Positions 2,342 to 63,876 of a stretch of 64,000 nucleotides of DNA are shown here, one piece after another. Source of the stretch: Minisyncoccota bacterium (GTDB taxonomy: Bacteria; Patescibacteriota; Minisyncoccia; Phycocordibacterales; UBA9973); NCBI GenBank assembly GCA_041661005.1, contig JBAZVG010000001.1, forward strand, positions 403,307 to 467,306, given 5' to 3'. The notes under the pieces are model-generated. The model ran no database searches and was not told the DNA's origin. It worked only from the letters and a program-made list of their open reading frames with translations. Within the stretch, counting starts at the first letter, position 1. Each line of letters begins with the position of its first letter. The translations under genes and the position numbers were made by a program.

Positions 2342-3034
2342 ATGCCCGACGACCAAAACACAACCCAAAATCCAATCCCCACAGAAAACTCTATTCCAGC
2401 AAGCCCCCAAGAGCCTACCGAGCCTGCCCCTGAAAACACAGCACATTCTGAACCTGCTGATGCACTTCCTGAGGCCCCAGAAAGCTCACCGAACGACTTT
2501 TCAGTGAAAAGTAATGATATACCACCCTCAAATTCTACCCTTTCAGAGCCTTTCAGTGAGCCAAAACCTGAAGAAAAATCAGCTCCAAATGAACCTAACC
2601 CAGAGTCAGTTTCTGAGCCTGTTGAAGCCCCCGAACCCAAAACGGCTCAAATACCAGTATCTGAGCCGTTGAACTCTACGAGCGAGCCGTTAGGCGAGCA
2701 AGTAGAATTCCCGGAAACTAAAACCGAGACAAAACCAACCCCCGAAGTAAAACCTGAACCAGTAGAAACTAACCCCGTTCTTGTTTCAACGAAACCCTCC
2801 CAAAAAAATTTATGGCAAAGATTTCTAAGTAAAATACAAATTGGAAAAAGAAAAAAGTTGGATCGTGTTATGACTTTATTTCTGAAAAAATCTAAAATCA
2901 CAAACGACGAAGTCGAGAAATTTCTTCACGTCTCTGACGCCACAGCAACTAGATATCTTTCAATTCTGGAAAAGGAAGGAAAAATAAAACAGAATGGAAA
3001 AACTGGAAAAGGAGTTTCGTATTCCAGAATTTAA
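2342..3034 (+). CDS. Pro/Glu/Ser-rich low-complexity protein with C-terminal winged-helix DNA-binding domain
   Basis: Repeated SEP/PEP low-complexity N-terminus. The C-terminus EVEKFLHVSDATATRYLSILEKEGKIKQNGKTGKGVSYS resembles an HTH_24/RecG-C-type winged helix. Confidence 0.45.
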   Translation: MPDDQNTTQNPIPTENSIPASPQEPTEPAPENTAHSEPADALPEAPESSPNDFSVKSNDIPPSNSTLSEPFSEPKPEEKSAPNEPNPESVSEPVEAPEPKTAQIPVSEPLNSTSEPLGEQVEFPETKTETKPTPEVKPEPVETNPVLVSTKPSQKNLWQRFLSKIQIGKRKKLDRVMTLFLKKSKITNDEVEKFLHVSDATATRYLSILEKEGKIKQNGKTGKGVSYSRI

Positions 3035-3039
3035 TTCTA

Positions 3040-3705
3040 ATCAGGGAGTGAGTTTGCGTGCACGCACGGGTGGGTGGAGTTTTTGTGTAATCACAAAAAC
3101 TCTGGGGCAAGCACGATGGCATTTGCGCCTTCGGGAATTTCCGCTAGGGTGTCTGGGCTAAAGACGAGCGCCTGAGCAATATGAAATACTAAAATCTCAT
3201 AGCGAAAGCGACATACTAAACATGGATATGAAAAACCTGAGAGGGGTTTGTGCGGTCGGGTGGGGTGAGCCCTGTTCCGCTTTGCGGAATGCGACCGCAG
3301 GGAGCACGAACCGAGACAACGCACTGGGGAGAGGAGAATCCTCTCCCCAACTAGAAGCGGGCTTTTTCTTGAACGGCTCATTTACCAGTATTTGAGCCGT
3401 TCGAAAAAGTCCCGCTACCTAGAACTGGCGCTCGTAGCCCTAGCGGAAATTCCCGAGGCGGATGCCGAGGGTGTATTCCTTTAGACTGGACACAATGATA
3501 TGATGGACGAAGGCACCGAGCATTTGTATTTGGATTTCTCCTGCGGGCAGAATTCAGAATCTCGTCAAAAGAACATTAGTCGAGGAAAAGCGGAATCCTA
3601 ATCCCTAAAATATTTGTTCCGCTTTTCCGAGTCCATTGAATTAGCACATTAGTAGAGCGTGGTAATTAGTTTAAAGTTAAGAGGCGCGCGTAGCGTGCAC
3701 ATTAG
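3040..3705. repeat. GC-rich (about 50% GC) noncoding island of nested inverted repeats and palindromes
   Basis: Outer GCGTGCACGC-containing inverted ends at 3048..3071 and 3680..3705. A 19+8-bp long-range inverted repeat at 3133..3170 and 3428..3460. A roughly 70-bp palindrome at 3352..3422. A GGGGAGAGG/CCTCTCCCC hairpin at 3311..3333. No credible ORF: 3091..3381(-) is Arg/Cys/Ser-rich junk. Confidence 0.5.
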
Positions 3706-10663: not shown

Positions 10664-12499
10664 TTAACGACTATTTTTAATTTCCTCTTTTCTTTTATTT
10701 ATTTCACTTATTTTTTTTAAAATCTCCACTTCTTCTTTTTTGTCTTTAAGATTTTTAAGTTCTATCATTTTTCTTACAAGTTCTTCATTTAAATATTCTT
10801 CCTCGATTGAAAGCAACATCTCATTCACATCCTTCTGTAAATTTTCACTATCCAAATAAAATGCTTCCGCTTCATAAATTAAATCTTCCTTTATATTTTT
10901 ATATTTTTCTCTCGCTTGGTCCTTCGGCCCAGAGCCTATAGGCGAGGCTAATTTTTCAAAAATGGTGTTCGGATCTATAGTCTTGTTTTTCACGCTCTCT
11001 TGCCAGAAAGCTATTCCAAACAACCTTCTCTCGATCGGATCTTTTCTAAAACTTTTCTCCACATTTTCGATAGCAGTCTTGATTTCTTTACTTTCAGTCT
11101 CCATCGCCGATATCACTTTCTTTAGATCTTCCACCAAAGCATCTTCTTTTATTCCAGATTTGTCACTAATGAGTGTTATGAAATGAGATTTTTCGATAGA
11201 ACTTTCTAGATCATTCACAAATGGCAACAAGCGCTCTTGTATCGCTCTACCGATTTTTCTTTGGTCGGGAGCGAACTCTTTCAAGATTCTCTCTAGTATA
11301 GACGGAATAAAGTGCTTGGAATTACGTATCGCTTCGTGCCAGGCATCTTTGCCTTCTTTGGAAATAATATCTGCTGGGTCCATGCCTTCTTTCATACTTG
11401 CCACTTTCACGTCCATACCCATAGACAACGCAATTTTTGCAAAACGGTTTGAAGCATTCGCCCCAGCCTTGTCTGCGTCATATGCCAAGACAATATTTTT
11501 TGACAGTCTAAAAACTAGCCCTAAATTATTTATCATATTTTCCTTGGAAACTATCACATCAGTCATCGCCGTGCCAGAAGAAGCCACCGTATTTTTAAAA
11601 CCTGCCTGATGAGACAAAACTAAATCCATTTGGCCCTCGACCAAGATAGAAAAGTTATTTTTGCGAATAGAATCCTTCGCCTTGTCTATGCCGAAAAGCA
11701 CGGAAGATTTGTTGAATATCGGAGTTTCTGGGCTGTTTAAATACTTGGCCTGACTTATCACCTGCCCTGAGCCTGCCTGCGGTGAGCTTGCCGAACCCGT
11801 CGAAGGGTCGTCCACCAGAATCCTACCTGAAAAAGCAATTATGCGACCACTAGAGTCACTGATGGGAAACATGATTCTTCCACGGAATCTGTCGTACATT
11901 GCCCTAGACCCGCTTTGCAGGTCGGGCGATCCGCCTATGGCGGATTTAGCCTCAGGTTTTTTAGCCAGCCCGGCTTTTTCTATTTCAGTGTCAGTAAAAT
12001 TCTTAGACTTTAAATAATCGTAAAGTTTTCGCCAATCCAAAATAGCAAAACCTATTCTAAAATCTTTAATAGTTTTTTCTTCAAGTCCGCGAGATTTCAA
12101 ATATTCTTGTGCTTCCTTATTGTTCTTGAGATTATTTTCAAAGAACTTCGTGGCCTCTTCCATCACTTCATAAAGTTTTTCCTTTTCGCTCTTTGTCTCT
12201 TTGGCCTCTTTGCTATAAGTTTCGAGTTGGATGCCAGCTCTATCCGCCAAAAGTTTTAGCGCGCCCTTAAAATCAAGCCCTTCGAATTCTTCCACAAAAG
12301 TAAAAATATCCCCCGAAGCTCCGCAACCGAAACAATAATAACTCCCTCGCTCCGGACTGACAAAAAAGCTGGGTGTCTTTTCATTATGAAACGGACACTT
12401 GCCTTTCCAGCTCTTCCCCGCCTTGTCCAGCTTTATGTATGATGTCACAAGCGAGAGAATATCTATTCGTGATTTTATTTGATCAACAGATGAGGACAT
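10664..12499 (-). CDS. dnaG: DNA primase DnaG
   Basis: CHC2 zinc finger [11 protein letters not shown]...[11 protein letters not shown] and a TOPRIM region. Classic dnaG-rpoD arrangement. Confidence 0.9.
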
Positions 12500-12534
12500 A
12501 AATTTTTGATCATTATTTTTACTTAACTTAAAAA

Positions 12535-13011
12535 CTATTTTGTGAATTTGAAAGTGGAAAGGATTGCATCATATTCCGTCTTGTATTCTTTTGGAATAAG
12601 ATATGGGGATGGTAAAAGGGCTACGAATACATCCGAATTATTAGCAATCAATTCTGTAAAAGCACGCCCATTTGGCTTTTGAAACTCATTTTTAATCTCT
12701 ACCCATTCATTTTTTGGATATAACACAATACTGAACAAAATAAGAGTATCAATCGGCTTTGGTGTTTGAAAAGAAAAAGACACTATTTTTTGATTCAGAA
12801 TTGGACTTTCTTCGGATTGCATGGACCATGCTGTTGGATATTTAAACTCAAACCCATATTTCTCATTCGTATATGTTTCCCAATCAGAAGTGTCAGGACC
12901 CCAGTTATGATTCTTATCATATGTGGGTTGTGAAAAATACATATATGTATAGCTTCCAGCACCTATAATCACAACTGCTATAATAATTCCCCAAATAATT
13001 TTTTTGTTCAT
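12535..13011 (-). CDS. Secreted/membrane-anchored hypothetical protein (paralog of 27656..28369)
   Basis: N-terminal TM segment. The shared motifs W(E/K)TYTN(E/V)KYGFEFKYP and an identical C-terminus ILSTFKFTK are both present in 27656..28369. Confidence 0.45.
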   Translation of the reverse strand: MNKKIIWGIIIAVVIIGAGSYTYMYFSQPTYDKNHNWGPDTSDWETYTNEKYGFEFKYPTAWSMQSEESPILNQKIVSFSFQTPKPIDTLILFSIVLYPKNEWVEIKNEFQKPNGRAFTELIANNSDVFVALLPSPYLIPKEYKTEYDAILSTFKFTK

Positions 13012-24342: not shown

Positions 24343-26487
24343 GTGAAAAACCAAATGAATAAAAAAGAGGGCCTCGCCCGTAGGCCTATGGCCGAGGGCA
24401 TTATATCCATTACCTCCAAAGGCACTGGATATGTTGCCATTGGGGACGCAAAAAACAAACAAGACCCAGAAATTGATTCCAAGTATTTGAATACTGCCCT
24501 GCATGGAGATCTAGTCGAAATTACCCTGCATCCAAAAGGTAAAGCAAGACAGACAGCTGAAGTTTCAAAAATAATCACCCGCGCGAAAATGCGTTTTGCT
24601 GGAGTTTTAGAATTAGACCCCACCAAGAACGGGGCAAGAAACAATATATTTTTCTTGAAACCAGATGATACAAAAATGTACACGGATATTCTAATACCCG
24701 AGGGAGAATTAAACGGAGCAAAGGCGGGACAAAAAGTCTTTGTGGAAATAACTTCTTGGACAGATGCAAGCAAAGCTCCTGTCGGAAAAGTAATCAAAAT
24801 TTTAGGAAATCCGGGAGATAATGACACAGAAATGCATTCTATCGCAATGGAAAAAGGATTCGATTCAGAATTACCCCAAGAAGTAGAGAACGAGGCCAGA
24901 GAAATAAAAATACGCGGTATAAAAGAAAGTGATTACGCATCGCGTCGCGATTTCAGAAAAACTTTAACTTTCACCATTGACCCCTCAGATGCAAAAGATT
25001 TCGATGATGCAATTTCGTTTCGAGTTATTAATTCCCCTCTTGAGGGGTGGCCGAAGGACGGGGTGGAAAATGCATCCACCTCCCTCCGACAAAAGTCGGA
25101 GTACTCCTCAAGAGGAGAATTGTACGAAATAGGCATACATATAGCAGACGTATCGCATTATGTAAAAATAGGCAGTGCTTTGGATGTCGAAGCGCGAGAA
25201 CGAGGAACTTCGGTTTATTTAGTGGATAGGACAATACCGATGTTGCCCGAGACATTATCAAATGATCTATGTAGCCTGGTACCCAATAAAGACAGACTCA
25301 CCATGAGCGCAGTTTTTATTATGGACAAAAATGCCAAAGTAAAAAATGAATGGTATGGCGCTACCATTATACATTCTCAAAAAAGATTTACTTATGAAGA
25401 AGCCGAGGAATCCCTCGGCCATAGCCCTACGGGCGAGGCAATCAAAAAACTGAATGCTCCCCTGCATAAAGAATTGTCTATTTTAAATGATCTGGCAAAA
25501 AAATTAACAAAAGAAAGATTTGATAACGGCGCCATATCGCTTGATCAGGAAGAAGTAAAATTTGTATTAGATAAGAATGGAACACCGATAAAAGTAATCA
25601 CAAAAGAGCGCGGAGATTCTAATAGATTAATTGAGGAATTCATGCTTCTTGCCAACAAAAGAGTGGCGAAGATTTTATCTCCCCAATCTTCCCGCAGTCA
25701 CCTATCTGGGAAAGAAGAAAATAATAATATTTCTATATACCGCGTGCATGATCTACCAAGCAAGGAAAAGATGGCAGATCTGGCATTTTTTCTGCGAAGT
25801 TTGGGACATAAAATATCTTTAGTAAACGGAGTCATACCCAGTCATGAAATAAATAATCTTCTAAAAAAATTAGAAGGAAAGAATGAGGAAAACACAGTGA
25901 ATCGCGCGGTGATACGCTCCATGGCAAAAGCGATTTATTCAACCAAAAACATCGGGCACTACGGACTCGCTTTTGAGCATTACACGCACTTCACTTCCCC
26001 GATCAGACGATACCCGGATATCATAGTGCACAGATTACTTGCCAATTTTCTTGCCGGTAAAAAAGTCGGCAAAGAAAAATTGCTTGAATATGAAAAAATC
26101 GCCAGAATTTCATCTGAACAGGAAAAACGCGCTTCCGATGCTGAACGAGCTTCCATCAAATATAAACAAGTTGAGTATATGTCGAAGCGTCTAGGAGAAA
26201 ATTTCGAGGGAATCATAAGTGGAATTACAGAGTGGGGCATTTATGTAGAAGAAACAGAAACGAAATGCGAAGGACTAGTGCGAATACGTGACATGAGCGA
26301 TGATTTTTATGTTTTTAATGAAAAGAAAATAGAATTAGTTGGACAAGGGAAGAAGTCCCGACGCCCTTCGGGGTCGGGATCCCGATCGCAAGCATCGGGA
26401 AAAAAATATCGACTAGGCGATCGTGTTAAGATAAAAGTAAAAGGAACTGATCTGGAGAAAAAAACAATAGACTACGTTTTATTATAG
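24343..26487 (+). CDS. rnr: Ribonuclease R (RNB family, VacB)
   Basis: RNB catalytic motif IGIHIADVSHYV and a C-terminal S1 domain. Carries a roughly 92-bp in-frame repeat-element insertion at 25029..25120. Confidence 0.85.
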   Translation: MKNQMNKKEGLARRPMAEGIISITSKGTGYVAIGDAKNKQDPEIDSKYLNTALHGDLVEITLHPKGKARQTAEVSKIITRAKMRFAGVLELDPTKNGARNNIFFLKPDDTKMYTDILIPEGELNGAKAGQKVFVEITSWTDASKAPVGKVIKILGNPGDNDTEMHSIAMEKGFDSELPQEVENEAREIKIRGIKESDYASRRDFRKTLTFTIDPSDAKDFDDAISFRVINSPLEGWPKDGVENASTSLRQKSEYSSRGELYEIGIHIADVSHYVKIGSALDVEARERGTSVYLVDRTIPMLPETLSNDLCSLVPNKDRLTMSAVFIMDKNAKVKNEWYGATIIHSQKRFTYEEAEESLGHSPTGEAIKKLNAPLHKELSILNDLAKKLTKERFDNGAISLDQEEVKFVLDKNGTPIKVITKERGDSNRLIEEFMLLANKRVAKILSPQSSRSHLSGKEENNNISIYRVHDLPSKEKMADLAFFLRSLGHKISLVNGVIPSHEINNLLKKLEGKNEENTVNRAVIRSMAKAIYSTKNIGHYGLAFEHYTHFTSPIRRYPDIIVHRLLANFLAGKKVGKEKLLEYEKIARISSEQEKRASDAERASIKYKQVEYMSKRLGENFEGIISGITEWGIYVEETETKCEGLVRIRDMSDDFYVFNEKKIELVGQGKKSRRPSGSGSRSQASGKKYRLGDRVKIKVKGTDLEKKTIDYVLL
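25029..25120 (+). repeat. GC-rich multi-hairpin mosaic element, copy A (in-frame within rnr)
   Basis: ATTCCCCTCTTGAGGGGTGG...GACGGGGTGGAAAATGCATCCACCTCCCTCCGACAAAAGTCGGAGTACTCCTCAAGAGGAGAAT. Five successive hairpins. Homologous copies at 56870, 63309(-) and 63812. Confidence 0.75.
26357..26400 (+). repeat. Two adjacent GC-rich hairpins inside the rnr C-terminal tail
   Basis: CCCGACGCCC-TTCG-GGGTCGGG and TCCCGAT-N8-ATCGGGA. They encode SRRPSGSGSRSQASG. Confidence 0.35.
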
Positions 26488-27594: not shown

Positions 27595-27655
27595 GCTAAA
27601 TTCAGCGAAGTTGAATCGCCCGACGCTTCTGAAGAAGCGTTTAGGGAAGCAAAAA

Positions 27656-28369
27656 CTACTTTGTAAATTTGAAAGTGGAAAGAATTTTATTGAAAATAGG
27701 TTTATCGGTGACAAGTAAAGCAACTATATTTTTGTCATTTGAGAGATAAATTACTTTATGTTTTCCACCGAGGTCAAAAAAACCTTCTGATGGAATAACA
27801 GAACACATAGTTTCGCATTCAAATGATGATCCTTCATAATTACCAACTTTCGTTTCAGATAAATTTGTTACCTTACTAGGCATATATTGGTAATAATCAT
27901 GTTTGGTGGCATACTCGGAATTTTTTTTATCCGCTTTATTATTATAGTCGTACGCATACTGAGCATACTCCTTTGAAGTTTGATTGACTTGTATGTTAAA
28001 AACAGAAAATTGATCTCGCCACACAATATGAGACTGATGAGGAGGTCCGGGATTTCTTGAACTCAATGGATCAAATATAGTAACAAAATTTGATTTTTCA
28101 AGAGGATTTTTACTTTGTCCAGCGTCTGGATAATATCTGTCATTATTTTCTATCTCTAGGCTTACTGGGTACTTAAACTCAAACCCATATTTTACATTTG
28201 TATATGTTTTCCAATTAGAAGTATTTGTCTGTTGTGTTCCAATATCAACCACAGCCGGCGCTTCTGCTTTTTTACTTTTATAAATTAAATAACCACCGCC
28301 TCCGATAACTAATAAAGCAATAATTGATATTAATAACGGCACAACGGAACCCTTTTGTAAGTTTTTCAT
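27656..28369 (-). CDS. Secreted/membrane-anchored hypothetical protein (paralog of 12535..13011)
   Basis: Shared WKTYTNVKYGFEFKYP motif and the same C-terminal ILSTFKFTK as 12535..13011. Confidence 0.45.
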   Translation of the reverse strand: MKNLQKGSVVPLLISIIALLVIGGGGYLIYKSKKAEAPAVVDIGTQQTNTSNWKTYTNVKYGFEFKYPVSLEIENNDRYYPDAGQSKNPLEKSNFVTIFDPLSSRNPGPPHQSHIVWRDQFSVFNIQVNQTSKEYAQYAYDYNNKADKKNSEYATKHDYYQYMPSKVTNLSETKVGNYEGSSFECETMCSVIPSEGFFDLGGKHKVIYLSNDKNIVALLVTDKPIFNKILSTFKFTK

Positions 28370-29044: not shown

Positions 29045-31207
29045 CTACTTCGCAATAGCAGTTGCTTCGTCGAATTTGACGGAGAGAAGTTTAGAGGCGC
29101 CATTTGCGCCTATTGTTACGCCATAGAGCACACCAGCACGGGACATCGTCTCGCGGTTGTGAGTAACAACGATGAGCTGAGAATGTTTGGATAATTTTTC
29201 CAACATATCGCCATATTTACGGGAATTTGATTCATCGAGAGCGGCATCCGTCTCATCGAGAACTAAAAATGGAGGCGGATTGACTTGTGACATAGCAAAA
29301 AGGAGGGCGATAGATGTGAGCGACCTCTCTCCACCGGAGAGAGCATGAAGCTCTTTGACTTTTTTATGCGGAAGTGAAACATTTATCTCTATTCCCTGTT
29401 CGAAAACAATTTCTTCCTTTGCCTCGCCGTAGCCTTCGGCGTAGGCGGGATCATCTTCCAATTCTTCCGGAACATTCTTTCTCTTTTTATTTTCAACAAC
29501 TATGGCAAGAGAACCTGTGCCACCACCAAACATCAGCGAGAAAAATTCTTGAAACTCCACATTTATTTTTTTCACACCTTCTTTAAATTCTATATCAATC
29601 TTTTCTTTCAAATCTGCTATAAGTTTCTGCAAAGATTCTATACTTTTAGTCAAATCTTCCATCTCTTTAGTCAAAAATTGATCCCTTTCAGACACTTCTT
29701 TGAATTCTTTCATCACTTCCGCGCCATTACCCATGCCCGCATCTTCCAACTTTATTTTTATGCGCTCAATTTTTCTCTTCTGCTCTTCTTGAGAAATTCC
29801 TGAATCAATTTCCGCCTCTTCAGCGGATCGCTGAAAAGACGATTTGTAAGATAAAATCTCTGATCCGATAAGCGCGACACCCTCTTTGATTTCATTGTCA
29901 AAGGCTTCAATTCTACTCTTCAAGTTTACTTCTTTAATACGCACAAATTCCAAAGCTGAGGATAATTCCTGATGTTTTACTTTGAAACTAAACTTCTCAC
30001 GTTCCAAATCACGCAAAGCTTCCATCTCCTCATTCAAGGCTTCTTTTAATTGCCTGATCTGGCTAGCAAGCTCTTTTTCTTTATTTTCCATTTCTCTCAT
30101 CTGTGCCAAAATGCCGGTCTGAGAATTTTTTAATTCAGACAATTCTTTCTCACCACTTTCCCTGTTTTCTAATTGCTCTTTGCTTATTTCCCCCAGTTCT
30201 CTGCCACATGTCGGACATCTGCCTGAAACCTTGGCTCTATTCTCTTTTGCTTCTATCATTCCCTCGATTCTGCCGAGTTTTCGCTCCATTTCACTTTTCA
30301 ATCCACGAATTTCATTCATCTGCCTCTCGATAATCTCCAATTCTTCTATTTTTGGATTTTCTTTGGCAGTATCAGCCCCTTCTGTGCTAGAAATTTTTGC
30401 GCTGATATTTTTAAGCTCGCTTGAAATTTCCCGATGCTCGACTGATAAATCGTTTTTTTCTTTTTCCAGATAAATACTTTCTTTTTTGAGATATTCTCTA
30501 TATAAAGTTGCCAACTCCCTCTGCATTTCTTTGGCTTTCTCAAATTTCTCAACCTGTTTCTTTAAAAAATTTAAATGAGGAGCATTCTCCCTGCGCAACA
30601 TGACAACCTCTTTCATGTTATTTTCTGTTTTTTCTAATTTCCTGACGGATTCTTTTATTTTATATTGAAAAATTTTGAGCCCCAATGCGTCTTCCACCAT
30701 TTCTTTTCGATCTTTTGGACTTGCATTTAAAATCCTGTCAGCTTCACCTTGGGAAATAATATGGTGCCCGCTTGAACCAATATTCACTGACGCCAAAAGA
30801 TTATGAATATCTCTCAAACGCACTTCTGTGCCATTCAAGATATATTTATTCAACCCATCTGAAAAAACTTCGCGAGAAATACTGATTGTTTCATAATTTA
30901 AATTTATGTTTTCTCCCCCATCGTTTTCAAGCTTGAAAACTTTATCCGAATTGTTGAAATATATAGTGACAGTAGCGCGCGACCCCTTGGGAAGATTCTT
31001 TGACCCTTTGAAAATCAAATCAGAACCGGATTTCCCGCGCATTGATTTCATTGACTGTTCGCCTAAAACATAGCGAATAGCTTCTACCACATTTGACTTG
31101 CCAGAGCCATTCGGACCCACTACGCAAACAACGGGATTTTCAAATTCCAAAGTTGTTTTTTGGGAAAAAGACTTAAAGCCATTTAGTTCTAATGTTTTTA
31201 GTCGCAT
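29045..31207 (-). CDS. smc: SMC-family chromosome segregation ATPase, short form with CxxC zinc hook
   Basis: SMC head (LNGFKSF, GPNGSGKSN, LSGGERSL, LVLDETDAALDE). Roughly 400-aa coiled coil with CPTCGREL at its midpoint. Conserved rnc-smc neighbourhood. Confidence 0.7.
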   Translation of the reverse strand: MRLKTLELNGFKSFSQKTTLEFENPVVCVVGPNGSGKSNVVEAIRYVLGEQSMKSMRGKSGSDLIFKGSKNLPKGSRATVTIYFNNSDKVFKLENDGGENINLNYETISISREVFSDGLNKYILNGTEVRLRDIHNLLASVNIGSSGHHIISQGEADRILNASPKDRKEMVEDALGLKIFQYKIKESVRKLEKTENNMKEVVMLRRENAPHLNFLKKQVEKFEKAKEMQRELATLYREYLKKESIYLEKEKNDLSVEHREISSELKNISAKISSTEGADTAKENPKIEELEIIERQMNEIRGLKSEMERKLGRIEGMIEAKENRAKVSGRCPTCGRELGEISKEQLENRESGEKELSELKNSQTGILAQMREMENKEKELASQIRQLKEALNEEMEALRDLEREKFSFKVKHQELSSALEFVRIKEVNLKSRIEAFDNEIKEGVALIGSEILSYKSSFQRSAEEAEIDSGISQEEQKRKIERIKIKLEDAGMGNGAEVMKEFKEVSERDQFLTKEMEDLTKSIESLQKLIADLKEKIDIEFKEGVKKINVEFQEFFSLMFGGGTGSLAIVVENKKRKNVPEELEDDPAYAEGYGEAKEEIVFEQGIEINVSLPHKKVKELHALSGGERSLTSIALLFAMSQVNPPPFLVLDETDAALDESNSRKYGDMLEKLSKHSQLIVVTHNRETMSRAGVLYGVTIGANGASKLLSVKFDEATAIAK

Positions 31208-52861: not shown

Positions 52862-53734
52862 CTAAAAATTAAAAAGATTTAATTCAAAAATAAATGCCAA
52901 AAATGTTCCTAGAACCAAAAATGGAGCAAATGGAATTTCGCTTTTCATCCCCATACTGTTTATTCTACCATTTTTTGCCAGCCTCGCCGAGTCTAGGCGG
53001 GCCAGCCTCGCCGAGTCTAGGCGGGAAAGAACTACAAGCGTCACCCCGACGACAGCTCCAGACCAGAAAGCCATCACCAAACCAGATAGAGCAACAGAAA
53101 TACCGAGCAACCATCCGATGCCTAGAGAGAGCTTTGCATCCCCCAGCCCCATCCACCTGCCACGAGATATAAACCAAAAGAAAGCAAACGGGAATGCTAT
53201 GAACACACCAGAAAGAAATTCCCAAACAGTCGGGATTTGAAAATATAAAACGATAGGATTGGAAGAATCTAAAAAATTATTATGGAAAAAAAATAAACCC
53301 AGAAATGCCAGAACGCCGAAAATAAGAGAAAGCATGTCCGGAATTATTTTATGTTTCAGATCATAAGTCGCTATGACCACAAGCAGTGAAAACGCAGTTG
53401 CATAGTAAACATAAATGATGCCGAAAGATTGAATGTCTGCCAGAAAAATATCCTGGAATTTCAAAAACAGCAAAGCGAAAACGAGGCCTGTTGTAAATTC
53501 AACCAAAGGATATTGCATGGAAATTTTGGTTTTACAATTCCGGCACCTCCCCCCGAGCCATAGAAAGCTAACGACAGGTATGAGATCATACCAATGGAGT
53601 TTATTTTGGCAAGACATGCAGGCGCTCCGCCCGCCGAGAGATCTTTTTGTGTTGAGTCGATAAATTACAACATTCAAAAAACTGCCAATAGTGAGACCGA
53701 GAACAAAGAAAAAAAACCCAAGTAATAAAATCAT
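52862..53734 (-). CDS. pilD: Prepilin peptidase (A24 family)
   Basis: N-terminal Cys4 (CMSCQNK...CRNCKTK) and conserved catalytic Asp regions (DLKHKIIPD, GLGDAKL). Contains a 24-bp x2 in-frame tandem repeat. Confidence 0.85.
   Translation of the reverse strand: MILLLGFFFFVLGLTIGSFLNVVIYRLNTKRSLGGRSACMSCQNKLHWYDLIPVVSFLWLGGRCRNCKTKISMQYPLVEFTTGLVFALLFLKFQDIFLADIQSFGIIYVYYATAFSLLVVIATYDLKHKIIPDMLSLIFGVLAFLGLFFFHNNFLDSSNPIVLYFQIPTVWEFLSGVFIAFPFAFFWFISRGRWMGLGDAKLSLGIGWLLGISVALSGLVMAFWSGAVVGVTLVVLSRLDSARLARLDSARLAKNGRINSMGMKSEIPFAPFLVLGTFLAFIFELNLFNF
52977..53024. repeat. Perfect 24-bp tandem duplication (GCCAGCCTCGCCGAGTCTAGGCGG x2) in-frame within pilD
   Basis: GC-rich. Encodes LARLDSAR twice near the PilD C-terminus. 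Confidence 0.7.
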
Positions 53735-56869: not shown

Positions 56870-57033
56870 GCAGGGTAGTGATTCCCCTCTTGAGGGGTGG
56901 CTCGCTTACGAGACGGGGTGGAAGAATTCCCTCACCCCTTGCTTTCCCCTCTCCATTCAAAAGAATGGAGAGGGGTTGGGGAGAGGGTATCCACCTCCCT
57001 CCGACCTAGGTCGGAATACTCCTCAAGAGGAGA
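56870..57033 (+). repeat. GC-rich multi-hairpin mosaic element, copy B (expanded, intergenic pilA/pilC)
   Basis: ATTCCCCTCTTGAGGGGTGG-CTCGCTTACGAG-ACGGGGTGGA, an extra CCCCTCTCC...GGAGAGGGG module, then TCCACCTCCCTCCGACCTAGGTCGGAATACTCCTCAAGAGGAGAAT. Confidence 0.75.
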
Positions 57034-57042
57034 ATTAAAATT

Positions 57043-63246: not shown

Positions 63247-63308
63247 ACTACACTACTATTATATTATAAAAACAAATTATAATGAAGTAAAATGTGTATA
63301 ACTCAACA

Positions 63309-63419
63309 TCCACCCCGCATTCATTCTCCTCTTGAGGAGTACTCCGACCTAGGTCGGAGGGAGGTGGAAATGCATCCACCCCGTCTCGGATTACCGAGCC
63401 ACCCCTCAAGAGGGGAATT
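63309..63419 (-). repeat. GC-rich multi-hairpin mosaic element, copy C (minus orientation)
   Basis: The reverse complement reads ATTCCCCTCTTGAGGGGTGG-CTCGGTAATCCGAG-ACGGGGTGGATGCATTTCCACCTCCCTCCGACCTAGGTCGGAGTACTCCTCAAGAGGAGAATGAATGCGGGGTGGATG. It supplies the last codons and the TGA stop of the DUF559 gene. Confidence 0.75.
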
Positions 63420-63876
63420 TTAAGACACCTTTCCTTTTGTATATTGTTTCTAATACAAATTGATAAACACTAGCCAAATTTTTCTTAACTTCTATATCAA
63501 GTATCCGAACTACTTCTAAATTTAGATCTTTCATGAAAGCATCTCTTTCTGCATCATACTCCATTTTATTATCGTGGCTTGAACCATCTATTTCAAATAC
63601 CAATCCCAGTTCGGGAACAAAAAAGTCCACTATATAATTACCTATTACAACTTGTCGATCTATATCAAAGCCTAATTTATTTTTATCCTTGAATGTTTGC
63701 CAAAACAAAACTTCTGACAAATTGCCCGATTTTCTTAAATCTCTTGCTCTGTCCGTTAAAAGTTTGTTTTTTGGAATTTCCCAATAGGGATACAAGGACT
63801 TTGGATCCCATAATTCCCCTCTTGAGGGGTGGACTTTGTAATCAAAGGACGGGGTGGATGAATTCTTCTTGGGCAT
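63406..63876 (-). CDS. DUF559 (Vsr-like endonuclease fold) protein
   Basis: LRKSGNLSEVLFWQ...DRQVVIGNYIVDFFVPELGLVFEIDGSSHD...AERDAFMKDLNLEVVRI DUF559 pattern. Both ends overlap repeat-element copies. Confidence 0.6.
   Translation of the reverse strand: MPKKNSSTPSFDYKVHPSRGELWDPKSLYPYWEIPKNKLLTDRARDLRKSGNLSEVLFWQTFKDKNKLGFDIDRQVVIGNYIVDFFVPELGLVFEIDGSSHDNKMEYDAERDAFMKDLNLEVVRILDIEVKKNLASVYQFVLETIYKRKGVLKFPS
63812..63866 (+). repeat. GC-rich multi-hairpin mosaic element, copy D (partial left half)
   Basis: ATTCCCCTCTTGAGGGGTGG-ACTTTGTAATCAAAG-GACGGGGTGGATGAATTC. Lies inside the annotated 5' end of the DUF559 ORF. Confidence 0.7.

Follow-up and report, generated by a model that had tools for sequence, protein, structure and literature searches.

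The stretch of DNA analysed here (the window) is 64 kb long, has a G+C content of about 37% and comes from a Candidatus Paceibacterota bacterium of the candidate phyla radiation (CPR). It contains the rnr gene for RNase R, within which a short GC-rich palindromic element is present in frame, as well as three further copies of this element, two of which border a gene for a small nuclease-like protein of the family DUF559. A first-pass annotation of the window had described the element as a dispersed mosaic of five serial hairpins and had likened it to the palindromic elements of Rickettsia (RPEs), because one copy lay inside rnr without breaking the frame. The features concerned are listed below by position and strand.

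24343-26487, plus strand: rnr (RNase R), 714 amino acids (aa), with RNB, CSD2, OB and S1 domains; the insert makes up residues ~230-259.
25031-25120, plus strand: copy A, 90 nucleotides (nt) or 30 codons, two-armed, in frame in rnr.
25034-39/25042-47, plus strand: hairpin H1 of copy A.
25051-57, plus strand: hairpin H2 of copy A, CC-GAA-GG.
25062-67/25075-80, plus strand: hairpin H3 of copy A, GGTGGA and TCCACC.
25085-90/25095-100, plus strand: hairpin H4 of copy A, TCCGAC and GTCGGA.
25104-09/25112-17, plus strand: hairpin H5 of copy A, CTCCTC and GAGGAG.
56881-57035, plus strand: copy B, intergenic, directly after the stop codon of a T2SSF gene and upstream of a pilin gene.
56924-56989, plus strand: nested hairpin of a second GC-rich family; it occupies the H3 loop and thereby expands copy B.
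63307-63317, minus strand: duplicated CGGGGTGGATG (CATCCACCCCG on the plus strand), repeating 63373-63383, just past the 3' end of copy C.
63323-63418, minus strand: copy C, complete and two-armed, its first hairpin holding the TGA stop of the DUF559 open reading frame (ORF).
63406-63876, minus strand: DUF559 ORF (Vsr-like PD-(D/E)XK), 156 aa; its N-terminus translates the inverted module D and its stop lies in module C.
63813-63868, plus strand: copy D, a solo left module of 45-55 nt, inverted with respect to the DUF559 gene and forming the upstream flank of the DUF559 unit.

The 17-mer CCCCTCTTGAGGGGTGG matched the window exactly at four positions (25034, 56884, 63399 on the minus strand, and 63816), while 0.07 matches were expected from shuffles, and the 3' arm TACTCCTCAAGAGGAGAAT matched exactly three times. 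An nhmmer profile search recovered the same four copies and no diverged further ones in the 64 kb. All four copies of the first-pass annotation thus exist at the places where they had been put, and their limits were refined: the start of copy B at 56870 had taken in 11 nt of flanking DNA and was moved to 56881, and positions 63309-63322, earlier counted to copy C, are a separate duplicated fragment of CATCCACCCCG. This 11-nt direct duplication (63307-63317 and 63373-63383) brackets the right arm of copy C. The part at 63307-63317 is likely to be where the DUF559 unit originally ended on its right side, and the duplication gives the impression that a 3' arm entered this unit's right-hand module.

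Copy A encodes NSPLEGWPKDGVENASTSLRQKSEYSSRGE, which immediately precedes LYEIGIHIADVSHYV, and all of its 30 codons are read within the intact 714-aa ORF, as had been annotated. The insert (NSPLEGW...SSRGE) occupies a hypervariable position, with DFDDAISF on one side and IGIHIADVSHYV / YEIGIHIADVSHYV on the other. When the window sequence was aligned with 26 orthologs (identity 74-84%), five of these were empty at the insert site, one (P0003) had the same element, and the remaining ones had at least four other unrelated, GC-rich-looking inserts. Also the DNA of the closest ortholog (L132; comparison loci are cited by their L numbers) was without the 81-93 nt. The gap between the flanking motifs is 6 residues in the RNase R of Bacillus subtilis (8cdu), 4 in that of Escherichia coli (5xgu) and 33 in the window. 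Both the short loop that the annotation had expected in RNase R orthologs and its claim that the segment of ~30 aa was inserted, not ancestral, were therefore correct: copy A is DNA inserted at the turn between two RNB motifs, with the frame kept. The site was occupied again in L098 and L124. When the rnr copy of L098 is compared to that of the window, two loops differ in length, by +2 and +1 nt, and the frame is thereby restored.

The same loop of RNase R (alignment columns ~330-370; window positions 25020-25125) held at least five unrelated GC-rich insert types among the 27 aligned orthologs, including LSPTPLH..NGEGRRGE, PSLNKEGVGGGN.. and KPAFFHGLAGVGAPENRGPE; either insertions favour this site or it tolerates them very well. 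Other parts of rnr carry inserts as well. A second GC-rich hairpin family (GCCTCGCC...GGCGAGGC) is represented by two inverse copies in frame, at 24371-24398 and 25412-25439, which encode EGLARRPMAE and LGHSPTGEA; each of them occurs in some orthologs only, and the B. subtilis enzyme lacks both. A short GC-rich hairpin insert at 24616-24639 (DPTKNGAR) and a twin-hairpin GC-rich insert at 26356-26400 (SRRPSGSGSRSQASG) were likewise found in some orthologs only, and the gene has five separate inserts in total. The second family occurs elsewhere in the window at ~10907-10950, 27374, 29412-29456, 41438 and 52972-53073, the last being a tandem pair.

The unit of the element was found to be a module of ~45 nt, composed of ATTCCCCTCTTGAGGGGTGG, a variable covarying hairpin and then ACGGGGTGGA or (A)CGGGGTGGA. 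Described by its hairpins, the module consists of the terminal hairpin ATTCCCCTCTTGAGGGG, TGG, the variable hairpin and ACGGGGTGGA. The CPR element (~90 nt) is an inverted doublet of this module. Its right arm (TCCACCTCCC, hairpin, GTACTCCTCAAGAGGAGAAT) corresponds to the left arm in inverted and diverged form, and in the terminal hairpin of this right arm a C-G pair has been replaced by T-A through a compensated change. The relation between the arms extends over ~45 nt, and the ends form terminal inverted repeats (ATTCCCCTCTTGAGGGGT... versus ...ACTCCTCAAGAGGAGAAT). The element, with its four dispersed copies in the window, is 80-155 nt in size and includes no transposase ORF, and extra DNA, such as the second-family hairpin of copy B, is located in the H3 loop.

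All five hairpins described earlier can be recognised in copy A, although the second is cut down to CC-GAA-GG, but the favoured fold is not a row of five beads. In the minimum-energy fold the termini pair as a closing stem of ~17 bp around three internal hairpins. This fold holds on both strands and as DNA or RNA (z = -6 to -7), with an RNA fold energy of about -50 to -60 kcal/mol, and the terminal hairpins are a local alternative, which is the sole option for solo modules. The variable hairpin H2 showed 34 distinct stems of at least 4 bp, such a stem being present in 62% of the copies versus 11% of shuffles, and its loops were frequently GAA, GTA or GCA triloops (GNA) closed by C-G. In the RNAalifold analysis of 25 copies the variable hairpins were poorly aligned and one compensated pair was flagged; the stem count per copy was more informative.

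Exact matches to the 20-mer ATTCCCCTCTTGAGGGGTGG were found in at least 119 genome stretches when species-representative genomes were scanned. They belong to many phyla, from Patescibacteria to Bacteroidota, Bacillota, Thermotogota and Chlamydiota, and include cultured isolates. Some of the cross-phylum matches come from metagenome bins, and the module is also present in complete chromosomes (Kapabacteria OY761611.1, Flavobacterium CP096136.1) and in isolates (Pedobacter cryotolerans, Parasediminibacterium JCM 36343). A second scan, of metagenomes with the lineage-specific 3' arm as the query, gave 12 loci, all from relatives. Further copies beyond the four of the window, on which the claim of a dispersed family depended, are thus numerous.

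Thirty-six distinct two-armed elements of related genomes were available among the matches listed, and long ORFs read through 13 of them in frame. The host genes confirmed with Pfam were rsmA (rRNA adenine dimethylase, RrnaAD; same site in three genomes), purD (GARS), pheT (same site in two genomes), tgt and a gene for an FAD-linked oxidase. The metagenome loci of the second scan gave three further in-frame host genes, among them a UvrD-like helicase gene and a DUF192-like gene. Ten of the 13 read-through copies are antisense and encode (N/D)SPLEEYP.GGGG...ATPQEGN, while the sense copies encode NSPLEGW...EYSSRGE. In the RsmA/KsgA ORF of L015, a solo inverted module (ISTPLPQAGAPLKRGM) lies in frame in the N-terminal third, beside the two-armed element.

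The copies outside long ORFs sit between a stop and a start codon and interrupt no gene, and their removal (offsets of up to 2 nt either way) never restored a split gene, the apparent matches being neighbouring genes. In-gene copies are in effect 3n in length and free of stops; intergenic copies are of arbitrary length and have stops. The in-frame residence, the position of the non-ORF copies between genes and the frame keeping by +2 and +1 nt together suggest that the in-gene copies are translated and filtered by selection, and not spliced out. With rsmA, purD, pheT, tgt, the FAD oxidase gene, the uvrD-like helicase gene and rnr as hosts, in-frame residence in housekeeping genes was found to recur, and the comparison to RPEs was supported. 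Such behaviour is indeed present in a low-GC reduced genome, as the first-pass annotation had emphasised, but the element itself reaches beyond genomes of this kind.

The ORF between copies C and D, which the first-pass annotation had not recognised as the consistent partner of the element, was assigned to DUF559 by Pfam (PF04480, E = 1.8e-22), and NCBIfam agreed. Among solved structures its sole match was 3hrl, deposited as an 'endonuclease-like protein', and PADLOC showed a weak, sub-threshold similarity to restriction-type nucleases. The residues D84, E95, D97 and H101 (D, ExD, H; catalytic-type) were invariant among sequences 30-81% identical. DUF559 genes were found 30-250 nt from modules in nine loci, distributed among Patescibacteria, Cloacimonadota, Limisphaerales, Nitrospirota and Kapaibacteria. 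When all ORFs within 250 nt of modules were clustered without bias, DUF559 was the top and the sole recurrent family, and no transposase family recurred within this distance among the at least 119 loci.

The linkage was also evident when the protein was taken as the starting point. Among 120 CPR homologs gathered by protein similarity alone, 91 had the C-terminus F(P/S)S, which means that their stop codon is the TGA inside the module ATTCCCCTCTTGA; some C-terminal module signature was present in 111 and an N-terminal translated inverted module (...HPSRGE) in 97. Modules built in this way lay on the flanks of all five independently picked distant homologs of a Kapaibacterium DUF559 (36-99% identity). 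In the two that were furthest from it, L142 and L144 (36-42% identical to the Kapaibacterium query), the architecture was the same, a GC-rich hairpin and after it one with a GAA or GCA triloop, but the module sequence was different. The link between modules and DUF559 is tight and recurs, and the matching but different modules of the distant genes suggest that enzyme and module travel and evolve together. An entire module-DUF559-module unit lies in frame in a DNA methyltransferase ORF of Cloacimonadota (L089, 6532-7932), and the DUF559 units of L085, L093 and L142 adjoin HsdS- or HsdR-like restriction-modification genes.

The DUF559 unit occupied four different loci in related genomes. In the window and L136 it lies between pilus genes. 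L134 and L135 have it between T2SSE and a response regulator, in a spacer that is empty in the window; in L133 it adjoins sigma-70 and DsbA, and in L114 its neighbours are unrelated genes. Copy B, in turn, is missing from L134, in the spacer orthologous to that between T2SSF and the pilin gene. At orthologous sites, the short element as well as the DUF559 unit can thus be present or absent. A long autonomous insertion sequence (IS) was looked for in the Thermotogaceae genome, but the repeats there reach only ~100-300 nt around the module and no transposase is present.

The explanation that we favour, with moderate confidence, is that copy A derives from a mobile element associated with DUF559, as a non-autonomous form similar to a miniature inverted-repeat transposable element (MITE), and is translated as a tolerated loop. 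The structured module of ~45 nt is the building block, two inverted modules forming the ~90-nt element. The module-bordered DUF559 nuclease is taken to be the element's own enzyme; it would cut the cognate module, the spread then being completed by host repair or replication. The short doublets would be mobilised in trans. The rnr copy would be transcribed and translated as a surface loop of ~30 residues, tolerated but not useful, and the survivors within genes would be limited to frame-preserving copies without stops.

A wider generalisation is offered more tentatively. DUF559 endonucleases and their cognate multi-hairpin modules may constitute a previously unrecognised cross-phylum class of mobile elements, parallel to the repetitive extragenic palindromes (REPs) and their associated tyrosine transposases (RAYTs) but with another enzyme, the non-autonomous doublets of which would have colonised CPR coding sequences on a scale like that of RPEs and reshaped loops of essential proteins.

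Several observations weigh against the favoured explanation. Relative to the short element, the CPR DUF559 unit is circularly permuted: the short element has the outer ends ATTC.../...GAAT, while the unit has instead TCCACC.../...GGTGGA (TCCACCCCG.../...CGGGGTGGA) and its ATTC/GAAT ends face the gene. The order LE-DUF559-RE was found in L027, L102, L116 and L145, unlike in the CPR unit. Because of the permutation, a simple model of an autonomous parent and internal deletion fails to explain the CPR unit; the permuted ends could derive from a circular or tandem intermediate, or from modules acting independently as REPs do. No target-site duplication was found in the flanks of ~40 copies or between the filled and empty rnr sites, where the divergence of the genomes could hide 1-2 nt, and flank comparisons did not define any conserved target for insertion. 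The rnr copy may be old and immobile, since it is common to a diverged lineage. The AlphaFold2 model based on the 27-sequence alignment was poor (mean predicted local distance difference test score, pLDDT, 49.5) and had the insert unstructured between two predicted strands, which leaves its surface exposure less certain. Furthermore, hairpin covariation in DNA palindromes can come from template-switch correction without selection. We know of no DUF559 protein with demonstrated nuclease or transposition activity, and several non-CPR DUF559 units adjoin restriction-modification genes, which may point to a different role for the nuclease.

DUF559 could alternatively be a free-standing homing endonuclease that parasitises the repeat, with the module as its target and its insertion beside or within the module, the short elements themselves spreading by some other route. 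This would agree with L027, L102, L116 and L145, in which the gene lies in the H3 loop of a two-armed element, with the in-frame position of the L089 unit in the methyltransferase ORF, as might be expected of a homing-endonuclease gene, and with the Vsr-like folds used by known homing endonucleases (PMC3239194, PMC2677866). It does not agree with L134, which has the whole module-gene-module unit at a place where the window lacks any module, nor with the matching but different modules of the distant DUF559 genes, and it is considered unlikely. The two explanations are compatible with each other.

The terminal inverted repeats, the small size, the many copies and their nested or mosaic structure would fit also a classical MITE whose mobility came from a conventional IS transposase gene at another place in the genome, DUF559 being incidental cargo. 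This seems quite improbable, since the target-site duplication typical of such an element was not found in the flanks compared, no transposase was recurrent within 250 nt of modules among the at least 119 loci, the Thermotogaceae repeat is only ~100-300 nt long, and the linkage to DUF559 is too consistent for chance.

Very improbable, too, is that the element is primarily a functional RNA or DNA structure kept by the host, such as a REP-like terminator, an mRNA stabiliser or a regulator of the rnr mRNA. The fold is very stable as RNA, and the intergenic copies B and C and those of L014, L073 and L103 directly follow stop codons. Against this, copies occur in both orientations with respect to transcription, also inside ORFs, they are present or absent at orthologous sites, the two strands fold equally well, and no Rfam match appeared even at E <= 1. 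Individual copies may still have been co-opted later by the host.

That the rnr copy would be removed before a functional protein is made, as an intron-like or intein-like segment or by excision from the DNA, has as its one, indirect support that rRNA genes of CPR carry insertions, and it is hardly credible in view of the 3n, stop-free nature of the in-gene copies in comparison to the intergenic ones, the compensating indels between the window and L098, the length of 90 nt, which falls below that of known self-splicing introns and inteins, and the lack of matches to Rfam intron families. The deletion of non-ORF copies described above led to the rejection of the excised reading for those copies as well.

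In-frame palindromic selfish repeats are a known kind of element, but this family was not found described. No Rfam family matched in the window and the 12 loci at gathering thresholds, or in copies C and D at E <= 1, and in the searchable literature nothing was found on the module sequence, on DUF559 with repeats, or on MITEs or palindromic elements of CPR. The closest parallel in behaviour is provided by RPEs, for which no enzyme is known to us. As summarised in a later paper, they are palindromes of ~100-150 nt in a small genome, many of them in frame in unrelated housekeeping genes, and form several families (PMC10969869, citing Ogata et al. 2000). Like RPEs, the present element is a short palindrome, is found in frame in many unrelated genes, adds a peptide segment and coexists with other families. 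Unlike them, it belongs to CPR and many other phyla instead of Rickettsia, is GC-rich in an AT-rich genome, has clear structured terminal inverted repeats of ~45 nt, and is associated with a DUF559 gene; the analogy is a working one based on behaviour and does not imply membership of the RPE family.

The organisation resembles that of REP sequences, their doublets (REPINs) and RAYTs, as the module occurs both as a singlet and as an inverted doublet, the enzyme gene is flanked by inverted modules, different enzyme lineages have different modules, and there is usually one enzyme gene for many modules. The enzyme differs, being a DUF559/Vsr-like PD-(D/E)XK protein and not an HUH Y1 transposase (TnpA_REP), the GTAG/CGTC tag is lacking, and the modules are also intragenic. 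Bacterial MITEs (Correia, ERIC, BOX) are small, non-coding and dispersed elements with inverted termini, sometimes intragenic with open frames (PMC10969869). The present element shares with a generic MITE its small size (under ~600 bp), the absence of a transposase ORF, the dispersed copies and the terminal inverted repeats, but it has multi-hairpin ends, and neither a target duplication nor a parent IS transposase was found for it in the material compared. From the Correia/NEMIS elements of Neisseria, which have 26-nt terminal inverted repeats, a TA duplication and a site for integration host factor (IHF), it differs by having other ends and no TA duplication.

GC clusters of yeast mitochondria and fungal double-hairpin elements occur also inside coding regions. 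They are mobile and merge into mosaics, and endonucleases have been proposed to mobilise them (PMC4478555). The likeness consists of GC-rich mobile hairpins that form mosaics in an AT-rich genome, but those clusters are organellar, unrelated in sequence and without a dedicated flanked nuclease gene. Vsr-like (EDxHD) homing endonucleases, for example I-Bth0305I, are small nucleases of the Vsr fold that belong to selfish elements (PMC3239194, PMC2677866). DUF559 resembles a homing-endonuclease gene product in its nuclease fold and conserved catalytic-type core; in contrast to homing endonucleases, which reside in introns or inteins and have one conserved target, it has palindromic flanks and is found at four or more different loci. 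Self-splicing introns and inteins differ from the element in that the latter has no Rfam match, is only 90 nt long and always preserves the frame within genes.

Two other features of the window were observed. Downstream of the ORF 2342-3034, the region 3037-3490 (inverted repeat 2641-2673 / 3369-3401) consists of ~450 nt of GC-rich, strongly structured and non-coding-looking DNA; it showed no Rfam match above noise and ARAGORN found no tmRNA in it, and the region may represent a structured RNA that is divergent or has not been described. Two pairs of direct repeats that have diverged (72-92% identity) were present at 618-846 versus 1370-1598 and at 12530-12891 versus 27651-28222. They overlap neighbouring or distant ORFs and are probably paralogous genes.

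In-frame selfish palindromes have so far been largely a curiosity of Rickettsia, and the present results indicate that they recur in the small AT-rich genomes of CPR/Patescibacteria. They account for part of the odd extra segments in proteins of CPR bacteria, a point of importance for annotation, alignment and structure prediction. For DUF559, a very widespread domain of unknown function, a concrete role is proposed that can be tested, namely that of the nuclease working with a structured repeat, and the flanks of each DUF559 gene directly show the DNA substrate that is predicted for it. The occurrence of an exact 20-mer across phyla marks either strong recognition by a protein or recent horizontal spread.

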